Of a stretch of DNA of 64,000 nucleotides, positions 17,751-29,577 are shown piece after piece (the first letter of the stretch is position 1; every line of letters begins with the position of its first letter). The stretch comes from Terriglobia bacterium (GTDB taxonomy: Bacteria > Acidobacteriota > Terriglobia > Bryobacterales > UBA6623), in NCBI GenBank assembly GCA_963824095.1, contig CAWGNS010000008.1, forward strand, positions 1,231,200 to 1,295,199, read 5' to 3'. The notes beneath the pieces were generated by a model, which was not told the DNA's origin, searched no databases, and was given only the letters and a program-made list of their open reading frames with translations. The position numbers and the translations under genes were made by a program.

Positions 17751-19931
17751 CTAGCGCCGTCTCGCCACCAGCATCGTCATGTCGTCTTGCAAGGCGGACT
17801 GGCCTGTCCACTCGACCACTTCGCGCATGGCCCGCTCGATAATCTCCTCGACCGGCCGCGCGGCGTCGCGCAGCAACAGATCGAACAGGCGCTGCTCGCC
17901 GAATTCCTCGCCGTAAGGGTTCTCCGGCTCGGTGATGCCGTCGGTAAAGGCCACGAACAGGTCGCCGCTCTTCAACTCCACCATACTGGACTCGTAAGGC
18001 GATTGTGGAAAGGCCCCCACCACCATACCGCTGACGTCGAGCCTGCGGATCTCGCCGCCGCGAATCACCACCGGCGGCAGATGGCCGGCATTCGAGTAGC
18101 AGAGCACGCTTTCGCTCTCGTCGTAGGCGCCGAAAAACAGAGTCGAAAATTTCTCGGACGAGGTCCCCGTAAACAACTGCGCGTTGATGCGGCTGACCAT
18201 GTCGGCGGTCGAAAACCGCAAGTCGCCGGTTTCCTGGGCCAGCAGCGAAAGTTGCGTCCTCACGATCGAGTGTAGCGTTGCCATCACCAGCGCCGCCGAG
18301 ATGCCCTTCCCTGAAACGTCGCCAAACGACAGCGCCAGGCGGCAGCGAGCCAACTCGACGTAGTCGTAAAAATCGCCCGAGACGGTCCGCGCCGGCCGGC
18401 AGACGCCGAGCACATCGAGGCTTTGCAGGTTGGGCACGGCTTGCGGGAACAGTTGCGCCTGCACCTCGCGGGCGATTTCCAGCTCCGACTGCAGCCGCTC
18501 GCGCTCGCGGGAGTCGACGATCAGCCGCTCGATGGAGGCCGTCATGTTGTTGAACGAGCGGGCCAGCTCGGTGAGTTGATCCTCGCCACGCACCGGCACG
18601 CGATACGAAAAGTCGCCGCGATCGATGTGCAGCGTGCCGATGTAGAGGTCGTTGACCGAGCCCGTCAGGGTGCGCGTCACCGAAAGGGCGATGAAAAACG
18701 AGGCGACGATCGCCACCGCGAACATGCCGCCCAGCACATAGCCGATGGCTTTCGCCATCTGCGTGAGCCGCGGCGACTGGTTCGACATCATCAGCCGGGC
18801 GACCGCCGAAGGCCGCGTGCGGAGATAGAACGCCGTCTCGACATCGGTTTTTCCGCTTGCCCAATCGAGCACCGGGACCTGAGCCGGCCAGGCTACCATG
18901 CGGTCGAATGGATGCACCGGGGGCGGTACGTGCCGCTGCAGCTTTTCCTGCTCTTCCCAGGGATTGGGAGGCGACCTGGGATTCGCGGATGGCGTCACAC
19001 CGGTGGACGATGGCGGCTGCCTGGTACCCGTTCCAGGAGGGGACGCGGGTGAAGTCCCAGCCGCGGGCGAGGCGCCGGCTGTGGCCGACGATGTCGAGGG
19101 TACAGACGTTGTGGGCGACGTTGACGACGACATTGTCGACCGGGTGCCGGGCGCTTTCGCGGGAGGCCTTCCGAAAGAGGTCGTTCGCGGCGCCAGCCCC
19201 GGGATGTCGATATCGGGGCGCAGCTCGACGATGCCGAAGCCGGGAACGAGCTCCGCCAGATAATCGTCCGTCAAGGGAATCATCAACAGGATGGCTCCCG
19301 CGTCCGGCGCATATTGGGCGTGGGCGGCCACAAACAGTTGGCCATTGCGGCGGACCACCCCGCGATAGTGCACGATGTCGGCGGGCGGCTCGTCCATCGG
19401 AAAACCGGGAGGGAAGCCCGCCGGCCCCCGCGGCGTATCGAAGCGAGCCAGGATGCCGGGGAAGCGAACCAACGAATCTTGGAGGAAACGCTGCGCGATC
19501 GCGCGGCGCTCGGCCGGCTCGGCCGCCCGCAACTCCCATCCCAGCGACGCCGCGGTCGCATAAAGCTCCGCCGAGCGCTGATCGAGGCGGGAAGTCACCA
19601 CGTAAGCCGCGATGGGGCCAAACAGCAGCACCAGCCCGAAACCGGCCAGCGCCACCGCCAGCGTCAGGGGAATGACGCCGACGAACAGGTAGACCACGAT
19701 CATGCGGTGCCGCACACGCCACAGAAAACGGCGCACCAGGGCCCGCATGATGCCGACCACGATGCGGATCACCACCACCGTGCCGGTGAAATACACCGCG
19801 ATCTGCAGCACGATGCGGGCCGCCAGCACGGCGGACGAGTAGGGTTCCAGCGGCCACAGCGCGAGGTAGAGCGCCATCAGCAGCAGCAGCGCTTTCTCCC
19901 AGCGGCGCAATTTCTGCCAGAACTCTCGCAT
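17751..19931 (-). CDS. Membrane PP2C/SpoIIE (RsbU-like) phosphatase with HAMP domain
   Basis: TM helices, HAMP (DQLTELARSFNNM), VSGDFYD, GDVSGKG, NAGHLPP, TDGITE, DDMT. Confidence 0.9.
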   Translation of the reverse strand: MREFWQKLRRWEKALLLLMALYLALWPLEPYSSAVLAARIVLQIAVYFTGTVVVIRIVVGIMRALVRRFLWRVRHRMIVVYLFVGVIPLTLAVALAGFGLVLLFGPIAAYVVTSRLDQRSAELYATAASLGWELRAAEPAERRAIAQRFLQDSLVRFPGILARFDTPRGPAGFPPGFPMDEPPADIVHYRGVVRRNGQLFVAAHAQYAPDAGAILLMIPLTDDYLAELVPGFGIVELRPDIDIPGLAPRTTSFGRPPAKAPGTRSTMSSSTSPTTSVPSTSSATAGASPAAGTSPASPPGTGTRQPPSSTGVTPSANPRSPPNPWEEQEKLQRHVPPPVHPFDRMVAWPAQVPVLDWASGKTDVETAFYLRTRPSAVARLMMSNQSPRLTQMAKAIGYVLGGMFAVAIVASFFIALSVTRTLTGSVNDLYIGTLHIDRGDFSYRVPVRGEDQLTELARSFNNMTASIERLIVDSRERERLQSELEIAREVQAQLFPQAVPNLQSLDVLGVCRPARTVSGDFYDYVELARCRLALSFGDVSGKGISAALVMATLHSIVRTQLSLLAQETGDLRFSTADMVSRINAQLFTGTSSEKFSTLFFGAYDESESVLCYSNAGHLPPVVIRGGEIRRLDVSGMVVGAFPQSPYESSMVELKSGDLFVAFTDGITEPENPYGEEFGEQRLFDLLLRDAARPVEEIIERAMREVVEWTGQSALQDDMTMLVARRR

Positions 19932-22593: not shown

Positions 22594-25500
22594 CTAGCCG
22601 TCACGCCCCAATACGACGGTCACGTCCTCGCCATCGACGTTCATCGCCCAGCGCCCGGCGCCTTCCCAGGCCGCGCCGTTCATGCTCAGCTCGCGGCACA
22701 GCGTCTCGCCCTTGAAGTGCTCCTGCTTTGTCGCTGAGAATCCGTTTGAGGCGGTCCGAGCCGGCGATGCTGAGACGGATTCGCTCGGTGTAGTCGACAT
22801 TGAGTTCCTTGCGCAGATTCTGAACGCGGTGCAGCAGCTCGCGGTAGAAGCCTTCGTCGCGCAGCCCGTCGTCGAGAGTGGTGTCGAGCACGACCACGGT
22901 CGTGCGGTCGCCCGCGGCGGCGAAGGAGCCGGTGGCCTCGATCAATACCTCGACGTCGTCGGGCTCGAGCGCCAGCGTTGCGCCGTCGACTTCGATTTCG
23001 CCCTTGCCGCTCGACAGCAGTTGCGCCCGCAGCGCCGCGGCGTCCACGGCCTCGAAGGCCTTTTTGGCCAGCGGCATCTTCTTTCCGAGACGAGGGCCCA
23101 GCCGGCGGTAGTTGGGGCGCACCACATAGCGAACGTGCGCCTGGCCGCCGTGTACGAACTCCACCTGGTGCACGTTGAGCTCTTCGGCGATCAGGTGAGC
23201 GTACGCCGCCAGCTTCGCCTGCAGATCGTCGCCGGGCAGCACCACCTCGGCGCGCGCCAGCGGCTGCCGCACCTTGAGGTTGTGGTCGGTACGCACCCGC
23301 AAGCCGAGCGAAACGATGTTGCGCACCGCGGCCATCTCTTCCGAGAGCGCGCGGTCGATGCGGGCTTCCCGCGGCTCGGGCAAATCGCAGAGATGGACGC
23401 TTTCCGGGGCCGCGTCGCCCAGCGGCCGCCGCACGATGTTCTGATAAATCTCCTCGGTGAGGAACGGCACGAACGGCGCCGCCAGCCGGATCACCGTCGA
23501 CAAACACTCGTAGAGCGTGGCGTAGGCGTCGCGCTTGTCGTCGTCGAACTCGCCCTTCCAATAGCGCCCGCGGCTGCGGCGTAGATACCAGTTGGAGAGC
23601 CCGTCCACGAACTCGGTCAACTCCGAGGCGGCCTCGTAGGCGTGATAGTCGTCCATGAACGCGGTGACGCGTCCGCTGATCAGCGCCAGCTCCGAGAGAA
23701 TCCAGCGGTCGAGCAGCACGCGCTCGGCCACCGGCCGGCCCGGCATCGTCACCGGGTCGAAGCCGTCGATGTTGGCGTAGATCGTGAAGAACGAATAGAC
23801 GTTGCGCAGCTTGAGCGGAAACTCCTTCTGCATCGAGCGCACGTTGCCCAGCGAGTGGCGCGTCGGCGACCAGGGCGGGTTGCCGGCGAGGAAAAACCAG
23901 CGGAAGGCGTCGGCGCCGGGGGCCGAGCCGGCCGTGCTCTCGACCGTGATGCGCTCCTGCTCGGGCAGGCGCGGCACGTCGTTCGGCAGAATCTTGACGC
24001 CCTTGGGGGTGGGGCCGACTTCGAGCCGGGCACGGTCGGCGGCCGAAACCACCGCGACGCGCCGCGGCAGGCGCTTGCCCTGTTGGGCGGTGAAGTTGAA
24101 CACCGGGTCCGCGACGGTCGGGCCGGAAGACCTTCAACGACTGCGCCGGGCAACAGGTCCAGAGCTTCGAGATCCTCGCGCGCCAACCATAGCTCGCCGT
24201 CGCTCGCCTCGAGTCCTGCCTCTTCCGGAGTCACCACCGCAAAGTCGGCGGCCACGCGGTCGAAGATCACGTCCGGGGCGGTGTAGTTGCCCTTCGACTT
24301 CGATTCCTTCTTGCCCGTCGGGTCGCAGACATGGCCCAGCACGATGCAAGTCCGGAACGGGTGTGGGTAGTCGCGGTGCTCCAGCCGCAAGCGCTGCTGC
24401 GTTTCGGCGTCGAACAGCAAGGTCGAGATCATCAGTTGCGAGTAGAACCAGCCGCGCGTCTGGTCGATGGCCTCGGTGATGAAGTCCGCGGGAAACGCCC
24501 CTTCAAATCGCTCGCGGTCGCCGTGCGGGTAGCCCCACTGCGCAAACGGCATGCAGCCCGAGTCGAACCAGGCGTCGATGACTTCGGGAACGCGCCGGTA
24601 GGTGCCTTCCTCGCCGGGCTCTTTCCAGGTCACCTGGTCGATCCAGGGCTTATGCACCATGAGGTGTTCGGAAAGGCTGGGGTCCTTCTCGCGGTCGCGG
24701 TGGAAGGGCTCGAAGGCCGCGGGGTTCTTGGCGAGAATCTCGGCCACCGAGGCCGGCGCCTGCCTGCGGCCGGTCACGTCGTTGATCCAGATGTTGAGCG
24801 GCGTGCCCCAGAAACGTTCGCGCGAGAGCGCCCAGTCGACGTTGTTGGCCAGAAAATCGCCGAACCGGCCGGTGCCGATGTGCTCGGGCAGCCAGTTGAT
24901 TTTTTCGTTGTTGCGCATCGCCTCCTGGATCTTCGCGGTGGTGCGAATGAACCAGGCCGGGCGGGCGTATTGAATCAGCGGATCCTCGTCGGCGCGCCAG
25001 CAGAAGGGGTAGTCGTGACGGTAGTTCTCGCGGTAGACCAGCGCGCCGCTCTGCTTGAGCATGTGGATGATCTGGCGGTCGGCGTCTTTCACCCACTGGC
25101 CCTCCAGATCGGGCGTTTCGGAGGTGAACTTGCCGTCGGGCGCCACCGGGCGCAGCAGCGGCACTTCCGTGGGGTCCTTGTATACCGCCGTGGTCTTGCG
25201 GAACAGCTCGTAGTCCACCTCGCCGAAGGCCGGCGCCTCATGGACCAGCCCGGTGCCCTGCTCGAGTTCGACGAAATCCGCCGCCAGCACCTTCCACAGG
25301 ATGTAGTCCCGGCCGCCGGCGGCCAGTTCCGCCTGCCGGTCGCCATACTCGCCGTAGAAATAGTCGAACGGCGGGCGATAGCGGCGCCCCAACAGCGCCT
25401 CGCCTTTCATTTCCCGCTCAACAGGCAGTTCCTGACCGATTTTGGCGGCGATCTGCTCGCGCAGCGCCGCGGCGACGATCAGGCTGCGGCCGTTTTCGCG

Positions 25501-26253
25501 CACTTGCACATAGTCGAAATCGGGCCGCACGGCGACATACTGGTTGGAGGGCAGCGTCCAGGGCGTGGTGGTCCAGATCAGCAGCGCCGTCGAAGGGTCG
25601 TCCAGCAGCGGTAAGGCCACGTAGACCGAAGGATCCTCGACGCTCTTGTAGCCCAGCCCGACTTCGGCCGAGGAAAGCGCCGTGCCGCCTTGCGGCCACC
25701 ACCACACGATCTTGTGGCCTTGATAGAGCAGGTCTTTGCGGAAAAGCTCCGACAGCGCCCACCAGACGCTTTCCACGTAGTCGCGGTGGTAGGTGACATA
25801 GGCGTCGGAAAGATCGACCCAGAAGCCGACCCGGTCGGTCATGCGCTCCCACTGCTCGGTATAGCGGAAAACCGACTCCATGCAGCGGCGGATGAACTTT
25901 TCGAGCCCGTATTCCTGAATGGCGGCCTTGCCGTGGATGCCGAGCTCTTTTTCGACCTCGACCTCGACGGGCAGCCCGTGGGTGTCCCAACCGGCCTTGC
26001 GGGGCACGAAATAGCCGCGCATGGTGCGATAGCGCAGAAAAACGTCTTTGAACACGCGGGTCAGCACGTGGCCGTTGTGGGGCAGGCCGTTGGCGGTGGG
26101 CGGGCCCTCGTTGAAGACGAATTTCGGCCGGCCTTGGCGCGCCTCCATGCTTTTTTCGAAGATGCGGTGCTGCTTCCAGAAACTCTGGATGGCGTCTTCG
26201 GCCGCTGGAAAGTCAACAATCGGCTGGGCTTGCAGGAATTTCGGCTGGGGCAT
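22594..26253 (-). CDS. ileS: Isoleucine--tRNA ligase, type 2, with apparent frameshifts at ~24110-24145 and ~22728
   Basis: GPPTANGLPHNGH, GWDTHGLPVE, WTTTPWTLP, DWALSRERFWGTP, EAIDQTRGWF, KESKS, LSNWYLRRSR; type-2 C-terminus RELLHRVQNLRKE; spread over ORFs 23749-26253, 22601-24103 and 22594-22800. Confidence 0.93.
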
Positions 26254-26622: not shown

Positions 26623-29577
26623 ATGTACCATTTGCGCCACGAGGCGCCCTACATCGTGGGACTCGCGTTGTTGGGCGTGCTTTCCGGCTTGATTTTGGGA
26701 TTTCCTGGCCCTGGGCTGGTATCGAGGCCTGCGTCCGCGTCCGGACCTGGGCTGCTATCAAGCGCACCGCACTCCCATGCCCGCGCCTTGCGGGCGGCCG
26801 CGGCGACGGCGAACCCGCCGCTGTGGTTCGAGGACAATCGCGGGCAAACCGATCCGGCGGTCCGCTATCTGTCGCGCGGCCGGGGCTATGCGCTGTTTCT
26901 GACGCGAGACGAGGCCGTGCTGTCGCTCAGAAGCGCCGGGCGGTCGCCAGGCGCGCGCAGCGAGGCGCTGGGCCGCCATCAGGGCGAGGCGCCAGACAGC
27001 CAGGCCCGCGCGGGCGTGCTGCGCATGCAGGTCGCCGGGCGAACGAGCGGCGCCGAACTGCACGGCGAGCAGCCACAGCCGGGCCGCAGCCACTACTTTC
27101 TTGGCAAAGATCCATCACGCTGGCGATCGGGCGTGCCCCACTATAGCCGTGTCCGCCAAAAGGGTGTATACCCCGGCATCGACCTGGTGTACTACGGGGC
27201 ACGGGGCTCGCTGGAATTCGACTTTGTCGTCTCGCCGGGGTCTGACCCGCAACAGATCGAGCTACAGTTCGGCGGCCAGCGGTCGGTTTCCATCGACCGC
27301 GAGGGAGGGCTCGTTCTCGATGTCGCGGGAAGCCCGGTGCGGTACGAAAAACCCCTTCTTTATCAGCAGTATGGCGAGCGCCGGGTACCCGTGCCGGGCC
27401 GCTTTGAACGGCGCGGCCGCGATCGCATTGGCTTCGAAGTCGCCGCCAACTACGACCGCTCACGGCCGCTGATCATCGACCCGGTTCTGAACTATTCCAC
27501 GTTTCTCGGCGACACCGACGACGACCAGGGTGTCAGCATCGCCGTCGACGCGCAGGGAAACACCTACATCACGGGCACGACGCAGTCCAGCCATTTCCCG
27601 ACCACCGACGGCTCGGCGCAACCCCGCTTCGGCGGTCCCGACGACGACGTGTTCGTCACGAAACTCGACCCGAGTGGCGCGACGCTGGTTTTTTCGACCT
27701 TCCTGGGCTCGAACGAGAATGACCGCGGCCGCGCGGTCGCGGTGGGCTCCGACGGGTCGGTCTACGTCGCGGGCGAGACCAACTCCACCGACTTCCCGGT
27801 AACCCCCGGCGCCTGGCAGCAGGAATATGGGCGCGGCGGCCGCGACGCCTTTGTCGCCAAACTCAGCCCCGACGGCAGCCAACTGGTCTATTCGACATTT
27901 CTGGGAAGCGACGACGAGGACTGGGCAACCGACATCGCCGTCGACAGCCAGGGCCAGGCCCACGTGGTGGGTGGAACCAAATCCAGCAAATTCCCCACGA
28001 CCGTCCTTTCCCTGCAAACAAAGTTCGGCGGCGGCATCGACGCGTTTCTGGTCAAGATGAGGGCCGACGGATCGGGCGCGGTGTTTTCGACGTTCCTGGG
28101 CGGCGGCTCCGACGACGAGGCCCTGGCCGTCGCGCTGGATCCGTTCGACACCATCTACGCCACCGGCTACACCAAATCGGACAGCTTTCCGGTGACGGCC
28201 GGCGCCTTCCAGCCGGAAAGAGATTCCGACGAGGATGCCTTCGTGGTGAAGATCTTCGGCAACGGCGAGTCACTCGCCTATTCGAGCTTCTTCGGCGGCA
28301 ACGGCGCCGACTTCGGCAACGCCATCGCCATCGACAACGTCGGCAACGCCTACGTCAGCGGATCGACGCGGTCGAACGATCTGTTCCGCACCCCGCCCGT
28401 CTTTCAGAACGAGTACAACGGCGGCGGCGACGCCTTCGTGATCAAGGTGGTGGAATCGCCGCGGCTGCAGGTGCAGCGCATGACCTACGTGGGCACCAGC
28501 GAGGAAGACACCAGCAACGGAATCGTGGTCGCTGGCGACGGCAGCGTGACCATCGCCGGGCACACCAAATCGGAAGCTTTCCCGGTGACCGAGGGGGCCA
28601 TCCAGAGTTCGCTCGGCGGCGGCGACGGCGACGCTTTCGTGGCGACGCTCGACCCTTTGTTCCGGCAACTGGTGTTCGCGACGTATCTCGGGGGAGAGGG
28701 GCGCGACGAAGCTCGCGATCTCGCCCACGACACCGCCGGAAACCTGTACGTCACCGGCATCACCAGTTCGCGGGATTTCCCCGTAACGCCCGGCGCGCTG
28801 CAGCAGACCAAAAGCGACGGCGAGGACGCGTTCGTAGTGAAGATCAGCGACACCTTCTCGGTGACCAGCGTCTCGGCCGCCAGCTTTGCGCCCGGCGTGC
28901 CGGTGGCGCCCAATTCCATCGCTTCCGCGTTTGGACACGACCTGGCGCCGGCCGTCCAGGCCGCCAGCCTGCCGCTGCCTTCCGAACTGCTTGGCGTCCG
29001 CGTGAATGTCGTCGACAGTTCCGGCTTCAGCCGCTCGGCGGCGTTGTTCTTTGTCTCACCGCTGCAGATCAATTTTCTGGTACCGGAAGGGACCTCGCCC
29101 GGTGACGCCAGCGTCGAGGTCCGGCTCAACGGCGAGGTGGTAGCACGGGGAACCGTGACGGTGCGCACCGTCGCCCCGGCGCTGTTCGCGATCAACGCCG
29201 GTGGGAGCGGCGTCGCGGCGGGCCTGGTTACCCTGCAGCGCGGCGATGGCTCGCGCAGCACGCAAACCATCTACAACCCGAACCAGTTTCCGCCCAACAT
29301 CGAGCCCGTGCCGGTCAACATAGGCTCGGCGAACGATCAGGCGGTGCTCGTCATTTTCGGCACCGGGATTCGGGGAGCCGGAGGCGCCGCGAACGTCACC
29401 GTCTCGATCGATGGCATCGACCAGCAGGTGCTGTTTGCGGGAGACCAGATGGAATACGCCGGCCTGGACCAGATCAACATTCTGCTGTCTCCCGAACTGG
29501 CAGGCCGCGGGCTGCTGAACATGAACCTGAGCGCGGGCGGGCTGACCTCGAATACGGTGACCCTACTCGTGCAGTGA
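26623..29577 (+). CDS. Exported SBBP beta-propeller repeat protein with TIGR03437-type acidobacterial C-terminal domain
   Basis: FEDNRGQ/VYPGIDLVYY N-domain; repeats STFLG..D....IAVD..G..YV.G.T.S.DFP.T.GA; C-terminal VSAASF..VAPNSIASAFG...FVSPLQINF...GLDQIN; AGGAG RBS. Confidence 0.88.
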   Translation: MYHLRHEAPYIVGLALLGVLSGLILGFPGPGLVSRPASASGPGLLSSAPHSHARALRAAAATANPPLWFEDNRGQTDPAVRYLSRGRGYALFLTRDEAVLSLRSAGRSPGARSEALGRHQGEAPDSQARAGVLRMQVAGRTSGAELHGEQPQPGRSHYFLGKDPSRWRSGVPHYSRVRQKGVYPGIDLVYYGARGSLEFDFVVSPGSDPQQIELQFGGQRSVSIDREGGLVLDVAGSPVRYEKPLLYQQYGERRVPVPGRFERRGRDRIGFEVAANYDRSRPLIIDPVLNYSTFLGDTDDDQGVSIAVDAQGNTYITGTTQSSHFPTTDGSAQPRFGGPDDDVFVTKLDPSGATLVFSTFLGSNENDRGRAVAVGSDGSVYVAGETNSTDFPVTPGAWQQEYGRGGRDAFVAKLSPDGSQLVYSTFLGSDDEDWATDIAVDSQGQAHVVGGTKSSKFPTTVLSLQTKFGGGIDAFLVKMRADGSGAVFSTFLGGGSDDEALAVALDPFDTIYATGYTKSDSFPVTAGAFQPERDSDEDAFVVKIFGNGESLAYSSFFGGNGADFGNAIAIDNVGNAYVSGSTRSNDLFRTPPVFQNEYNGGGDAFVIKVVESPRLQVQRMTYVGTSEEDTSNGIVVAGDGSVTIAGHTKSEAFPVTEGAIQSSLGGGDGDAFVATLDPLFRQLVFATYLGGEGRDEARDLAHDTAGNLYVTGITSSRDFPVTPGALQQTKSDGEDAFVVKISDTFSVTSVSAASFAPGVPVAPNSIASAFGHDLAPAVQAASLPLPSELLGVRVNVVDSSGFSRSAALFFVSPLQINFLVPEGTSPGDASVEVRLNGEVVARGTVTVRTVAPALFAINAGGSGVAAGLVTLQRGDGSRSTQTIYNPNQFPPNIEPVPVNIGSANDQAVLVIFGTGIRGAGGAANVTVSIDGIDQQVLFAGDQMEYAGLDQINILLSPELAGRGLLNMNLSAGGLTSNTVTLLVQ

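Follow-up and report, generated by a model that had tools for sequence, protein, structure and literature searches.

Class Ia aminoacyl-tRNA synthetases have been studied closely, and the region after their KMSKS loop faces the inner corner of the tRNA. Among double-psi beta-barrels, the catalytic barrels of multi-subunit RNA polymerases are marked by a DxDGD-type metal motif, and in CDC48-type proteins the adaptors bind between two N subdomains. Designed double-psi barrels bind ssRNA non-specifically, according to the accessible text of two reports (PMC11258233; bioRxiv 10.1101/2021.02.22.432383). Bacterial leucyl-tRNA synthetase (LeuRS) has a leucine-specific domain that lies beside the KMSKS motif and rotates with it; the accessible text of PMC3643597 describes this domain as variable and dispensable, binding tRNA by one lysine and modulating both tRNA binding and the position of the loop. 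It precedes KMSKS and has another fold, probably a zinc ribbon that has decayed (PMC6588880, accessible part). The described insertion of type 2 isoleucyl-tRNA synthetase (IleRS2), named INS, sits in ARD2, unlike the insert reported here (bioRxiv 10.64898/2026.02.03.703510, accessible main text). In a literature search largely confined to papers outside subscription, we found no description of a double-psi barrel in any class Ia synthetase and no paper that pairs KESKS with a tRNA synthetase, and the accessible main texts of PMC10485003, PMC11685878 and bioRxiv 10.64898/2026.02.03.703510 do not mention the insert.

Here we describe the ileS gene in a 64,000-nt stretch of DNA from a Terriglobia bacterium, which as a whole is called the window (GCA_963824095.1, contig CAWGNS010000008.1, positions 1,231,200 to 1,295,199). 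Its IleRS resembles the type 2 enzymes (8C8U; T. thermophilus 1ILE) in its matches to TIGR00392 and DUF5915, its HXGH motif and its presumed CP1 motifs, and differs from them by its KESKS and HNGH motifs and by some 111 additional residues that follow the KMSKS loop. These additional residues lie only a few positions past the loop that binds ATP, in an enzyme that is essential and encoded in single copy. The insert, a predicted double-psi barrel, is C-terminal to KESKS, whereas the LeuRS domain is N-terminal to KMSKS, making the two analogues at most. In predicted fold, the insert is like the N-terminal barrel of VCP/CDC48/p97/VAT (PF02359; 7DG9, 7DBO, 1CZ5; TM 0.83, Z 12-13), and both consist of two pseudo-symmetric halves with a basic loop before strand 5. 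Unlike the CDC48 N-domain, however, it sits inside a synthetase, without the second N subdomain and without an AAA module, and in its long form a loop of about 20 residues replaces the second GD-box. The catalytic double-psi barrels of RNA polymerase share the fold as well (Z 11.2 to 2PMZ_A), but the insert is a single barrel, and a DxDGD-type metal motif is absent from the consensus of both its long and its short form.

Results

A domain inserted after the KMSKS loop of a type 2 IleRS

The features of ileS are collected in Table 1. A tblastn search found the window's ileS as the sole IleRS of the 7.67-Mb genome, the other matches being ValRS and LeuRS. Since it is the only IleRS in a genome that is 94.6% complete, we infer that its product carries out isoleucylation. 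Against TIGR00392, the orthologue P0013 reaches 797.7 bits, above the cut-off of 621.4, and the DUF5915 C-terminal region (type 2) scores 136 bits on the window's own ileS frame. The mupirocin hyper-resistance motif G/AXHH is absent from the window's IleRS, which has HNGH instead, and the MupA/MupB cut-off of 1900 is not reached (753.7 and 751 bits). TilS and three CAT-anticodon tRNAs are present, and the genome therefore gives no sign of unusual Ile decoding. Upstream of ileS, no leader RNA was found at the gathering score, and the one match has an E value of 0.39.

The insert comprises 344 nt, that is, 114 codons plus two surplus bases. The spacing P601-G609 in P. megaterium IleRS2 (8C8U) is 7 residues, and that in the same-genus orthologue is 118, a net gain of about 111 residues; the spacing after the KMSKS loop is also short in the ValRS and LeuRS of the same genome. 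The alignment with P. megaterium IleRS2 rules out that the insert is a standard IleRS2 segment. The sequence-only reading had placed an insert of about 113 aa at 23918-24258, noting that a typical IleRS has only a few residues between GN..DP..... and GADA.RW. Both observations hold, and its ends lie at most two codons from the measured ones.

Table 1. Features of ileS and its insert in the window
Feature	Position	Strand	Remark
ileS, type 2 isoleucyl-tRNA synthetase	22595 (about)..26253	(-)	Reading frame interrupted at three surplus bases
HIGH motif as HNGH	26068..26079	(-)	Canonical HXGH order
TTTPWT and GTGLVH, taken to be CP1 editing-domain motifs	25240..25572	(-)	
KMSKS loop, here KESKS	24295..24309	(-)	
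Insert of 114 aa (long form), a predicted double-psi beta-barrel	23921..24264	(-)	From FDRVAADF (24264) to STAGSA (23921)
First-half helix and GD-box-like turn, REDLEALDLLPG	24145..24180	(-)	
Two surplus single bases inside the insert	about 24112 and 24140		Relative to the same-genus orthologue
LPRRV loop preceding strand 5	24056..24070	(-)	First Arg basic in 259/259 inserts
Part of the extra loop of about 17-22 residues, P-x-[ED]-V-P-R-L-P	23963..23995	(-)	Long form only
PGADAFRW, resumption of standard IleRS2 sequence	23897..23920	(-)	
Third surplus base, near the ileS C-terminus	about 22725		Relative to the same-genus orthologue

The frame breaks in ileS are assembly errors

The insert had been read across a single frame break, but there are actually two, and a third lies near the C-terminus. 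Short-read contigs from two of four runs lack both surplus bases in the insert, and a contig from one of the four lacks the third. Each of the two contigs over the insert differs from the window by one other letter and two gaps, and further short-read contigs bridge both insert junctions. The four runs belong to one study and may come from the source sample; they bear on assembly error and not on independent occurrence, which follows from the presence of the insert in all 24 same-family genomes. In all 24, ileS lies in open frames of 1218-1308 aa. Because the short-read contigs lack the surplus bases and the relatives have an open frame, the three frame breaks are assembly errors, and in the living organism the gene is whole. 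The relatives also keep the insert in one open frame, which, together with the short-read contigs, excludes an assembly artefact as its source as well as programmed frameshifting.

The insert is predicted to be a double-psi beta-barrel

The intact insert of a same-genus genome (L016) was modelled by AlphaFold with an alignment of 105 sequences. The model (pLDDT 89.9, pTM 0.82) shows two main helices and six strands arranged as 2 x (beta-beta-alpha-beta), with elements E5-11, E24-27, H29-34, E42-46, E55-61, E69-71, H74-80 and E104-109. The best Foldseek matches are the double-psi barrels 7DI0 and 7DG9 (TM(target) 0.83; rmsd 2.4 to 7DG9), and the next are p97 and a mycobacterial AAA ATPase. Against 48,161 chains, VIA-align gives Z 13.2 to CDC48A-N (rmsd 2.5, 88 aligned), Z 12.2 to the T. 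acidophilum VCP (VAT) barrel and Z 11.2 to RNA polymerase 2PMZ_A. A further VIA-align match is chain G of 9FHL, from an archaeal 30S ribosomal subunit structure (Z 9.9).

By sequence, the long form alone matches CDC48_N weakly in 3 of 20 members (best E 8e-4), and its search against solved structures gives nothing under E 0.4. The short form reaches at best 23 bits against Pfam CDC48_N (one of five members), below the curated cut-off of 35.1. A combined profile of both forms matches the natural VCP barrel 7DG9 with E 5e-5, with the RR loop aligned to GRK/GKR. The short form, modelled from a single sequence, is predicted to have the same barrel fold. When the two halves are compared by hhalign, they match at 84% probability (E 7e-6) in the short form and more weakly in the long form (53%, E 1.4e-4), where the extra loop of about 17-22 residues replaces the second GD-box; the short form lacks that loop. 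These results bear out the fold call, which had been made by eye; neither another fold nor disorder was obtained. The prediction for the insert is thus a double-psi beta-barrel like that of VCP/CDC48, in which the psi-loop crossovers are implied by the superpositions only. It shares its fold with the CDC48 N-domain without being one, because it lacks an AAA context and does not reach the Pfam threshold for CDC48_N. FeoA/SH3, TOBE and AbrB folds gave weak Pfam matches only, and the structure searches favour the double-psi barrel over them. An ESM Atlas search with the insert gave no usable match.

Distribution of the long and short forms

Besides the 24 same-family genomes, the insert occurs in one of nine genomes of a sister family and in none of seven of another. 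It exists in two forms, a long one of about 114 aa and a short one of 81-95 aa, which share 16-25% identity and are homologous by hhalign (95.7%). The long insert measures 112-114 aa in 175 of 235 cases, across Acidobacteriota and Myxococcota. The related loci (52) are mostly titled Bryobacterales, and among the proteins listed the named carriers include Bryobacterales, Vicinamibacteria, Hyalangium minutum, Pyxidicoccus and Polyangiaceae. Among the 120 listed of 175 longer proteins with the insert, P0063 is a fragment of IleRS and the other 119 have Pfam domains of this enzyme; HNGH is found in 101 of the 120 (19 not scored) and KESKS/T in 118. The barrel enzyme is the sole IleRS in the window's genome and in all four other carriers checked.

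The long-form profile matched none of 300 other genomes of the phylum, which is a false negative, since five of them have the short form (family f25, 5/5). A core search of other genomes of the phylum matched 56 non-own genomes, of which 29 were read: five loci have the short form and 24 have no insert, and KESKS occurs in none of those 24. Metagenomic loci were collected with a DNA pattern for the KESKS loop that is blind to the downstream sequence, which yielded at least 120 loci, eight classed by eye. The 120 matches listed comprise 100 long forms, 11 short forms, eight loci without an insert and one that is unreadable because it is cut off. The eight loci without an insert exclude the possibility that KESKS requires the barrel.

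In every true match the insert is flanked by IleRS sequence. A stand-alone form or a donor of the barrel was not found among 40 representative matches: 34 were recognized, with BLAST or by eye, as IleRS or as parts of it, P0156, P0161, P0169, P0173 and P0174 are multi-stretch matches taken as chance repeats (of these, P0173 was read), and P0175 (E 9e-4) is AbrB-like by eye. A search of proteins of 44-200 aa for a stand-alone barrel gave two matches, both IleRS fragments. Eight of the nine genomes of the sister family have IleRS1-type frames of 937-981 aa, and in the ninth (G037, locus L025) a barrel-bearing IleRS2 is the only IleRS, which suggests sideways replacement.

KESKS probably preceded the barrel

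Carriers and KESKS enzymes without an insert were placed on a tree of 62 rows and 283 columns, from which the insert had been removed. The rows are 36 long forms chosen for diversity, 11 short forms, seven KESKS loci without an insert and eight outgroups; L183, which has no insert and is identical to L122, was dropped. Six of the no-insert KESKS rows fall outside the carriers (support only 81/95, on 283 columns), and the remaining one, L122, is nested among the long carriers (98/93 and 99/82). A clade of carriers only is rejected (p-AU 0.001), and both flanks of L122 are nearer to the carriers (69-73% and 62-65% identity) than to the non-carriers (59-66% and 49-57%). From these placements, the AU test and the flank identities, KESKS probably came before the barrel, and the barrel has apparently been lost cleanly at least once, back to the standard spacing. 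The no-insert enzymes, with the loss in L122, agree with the earlier description of the domain as accessory.

The tree is consistent with a series of events in which KMSKS would have changed to KESKS and a single barrel would then have been inserted into that lineage. The inserted barrel would have diverged into the long and short forms, the gene may have moved sideways and taken the place of IleRS1 in some Acidobacteriota, and one lineage or more would have excised the barrel to standard spacing.

Conservation and charge of the barrel

The mean pairwise identity is 46% in the barrel, 49% across the C-terminal domains, with 72-79% in the catalytic core. The mean net charge is -2.4 for the long form and -2.2 for the short form, and 9% of the 235 long inserts are net positive. 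Among these 235, R67 and R68 are invariant in charge, and K63, R104, D31 and D36 are conserved in charge to at least 91%; K63, R98 and R104 are basic in 75-100% of the long forms. The extra loop of the long form has P93 in 93%, V96 in 95% and L99 in 89%. Position 67 is basic in all 259 long and short inserts. In the long form position 33 is acidic (211/235) and position 68 basic (235/235), and in the short form position 33 is basic (23/24) and position 68 acidic (24/24). This charge swap, which represents only one or two events, is more readily read as a likely salt bridge within the domain than as a contact with RNA. Barrel-to-body coevolution (Neff about 59) gave noise-like top pairs.

The domain had also been read as possibly RNA-binding, and here the evidence points both ways. 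The net charge of -2.4, the swap of the second arginine in all 24 short forms and the VCP-like loop speak against it; the basic residue at position 67 in 259 of 259 inserts speaks for it. Position 67 alone is universal among the candidate contacts, but it is also found in VCP barrels. The basic loop can be aligned with GRK/GKR of the VCP barrels and so may be a feature of the fold. The net acidity and the conserved arginines that match the fold's own motif weaken the RNA-binding reading.

Possible roles of the barrel

We tentatively favor the view, with a probability of about 0.4, that the barrel is an optional module of the KMSKS arm whose part would be to tune the binding of tRNA or the closure of the loop, and not to carry out catalysis. 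The barrel is kept in all 24 family genomes and in 111 of the 120 listed KESKS loci, and its absence from eight of these loci fits an optional part. The view draws on the LeuRS domain and on the non-specific RNA binding of designed barrels. By analogy with the leucine-specific domain of LeuRS, the barrel would move with the KMSKS loop and would touch the tRNA through one conserved basic residue, joined in the long form by a basic cluster. It appears doubtful that a class I synthetase has taken a double-psi barrel into its catalytic arm as an RNA- or partner-binding switch, coupling KESKS to the tRNA or to a regulator; if true, myxobacteria and some acidobacteria would have a control point for isoleucine charging that is missing from other bacteria.

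The barrel might instead be a passenger, a stable domain that entered a tolerant site on the surface a single time and has persisted because an imprecise excision would be lethal in a gene that is essential and single-copy. It is the least conserved region of the enzyme, its long and short forms are only 16-25% identical, its conserved residues can be explained as core and salt bridges, and a clean loss exists in L122. However, the surface-type residues R67 (235/235), D31, D36 and R104 are invariant, the length is nearly fixed at 112-114 aa in 175 of 235 inserts across Acidobacteriota and Myxococcota, and one loss only is seen among the 120 listed KESKS loci, and we regard this account as unlikely. 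The nearest folds are the N-domains of p97, CDC48 and VAT, many of them solved with bound adaptors, and the net acidic surface and the conserved extra loop of the long form (P93, V96, L99) would also suit a docking platform of that kind, which would recruit a chaperone, a modifying enzyme or another synthetase. The barrel, however, is not followed by a second N subdomain as in CDC48-type proteins, and the window's genome (94.6% complete) contains no CDC48_N match. Nor do all loci share a neighbor: the most frequent downstream gene occurs in 23 of 49 and is absent beside the window's ileS. We regard docking as improbable.

It seems very unlikely that the barrel, KESKS and HNGH together shield the active site against a toxin or an inhibitor, such as enzymes modifying the KMSKS loop or mupirocin-like antibiotics. 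The mupirocin resistance of IleRS2 depends on a closed KMSKS loop (PMC10485003, accessible text), and IleRS1 has been replaced in G037 (eight sampled relatives from its family keep IleRS1-type frames) as well as in the window's family. Nevertheless, IleRS2 alone accounts for the benefit of such a replacement, the hyper-resistance motif G/AXHH is absent, and eight of the 120 listed loci have KESKS without a barrel. The natural long, short, never-inserted and lost versions form a series for testing the gain and removal of a domain in the catalytic arm, and the barrel is present in the culturable myxobacteria Hyalangium minutum and Pyxidicoccus. If deletion of the barrel had no effect, it would be an evolutionary marker and a curiosity.

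Other features of the carriers and the locus

Zinc-binding CxxC motifs are usual in IleRS, and the carriers have WWWPQGG, PFCWR and LNIWIND at the sites of these motifs (window 24800-25750, (-) strand), by which the carrier clade may be zinc-poor. The signature motifs are unusually variable around the carrier clade: a close non-carrier IleRS2 (L095, from G129) has HWGH and KLSKR, and several others have KMSKR. The short-form ileS genes of L092 and L094 (G297 and G331) lie in open frames of 1533 and 1493 aa and may be extended or fused.

In 23 of 49 related loci (L062:4216-5355 and 22 others of L036-L087), the first gene downstream of ileS is one that has a CxxxCxxC motif and by eye is presumably RlmN-like; in the window an OmpA-family gene takes its place. 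Upstream of ileS and divergent from it, the window encodes a beta-propeller repeat protein that carries a Solibacter C-terminal domain (26623-29577, (+) strand), and this gene is also found upstream of ileS in the same-genus genome. A SpoIIE-like phosphatase gene at 17751-19931 ((-) strand) has a central Ser/Thr/Pro-rich stretch, which could be another pair of assembly frameshifts.
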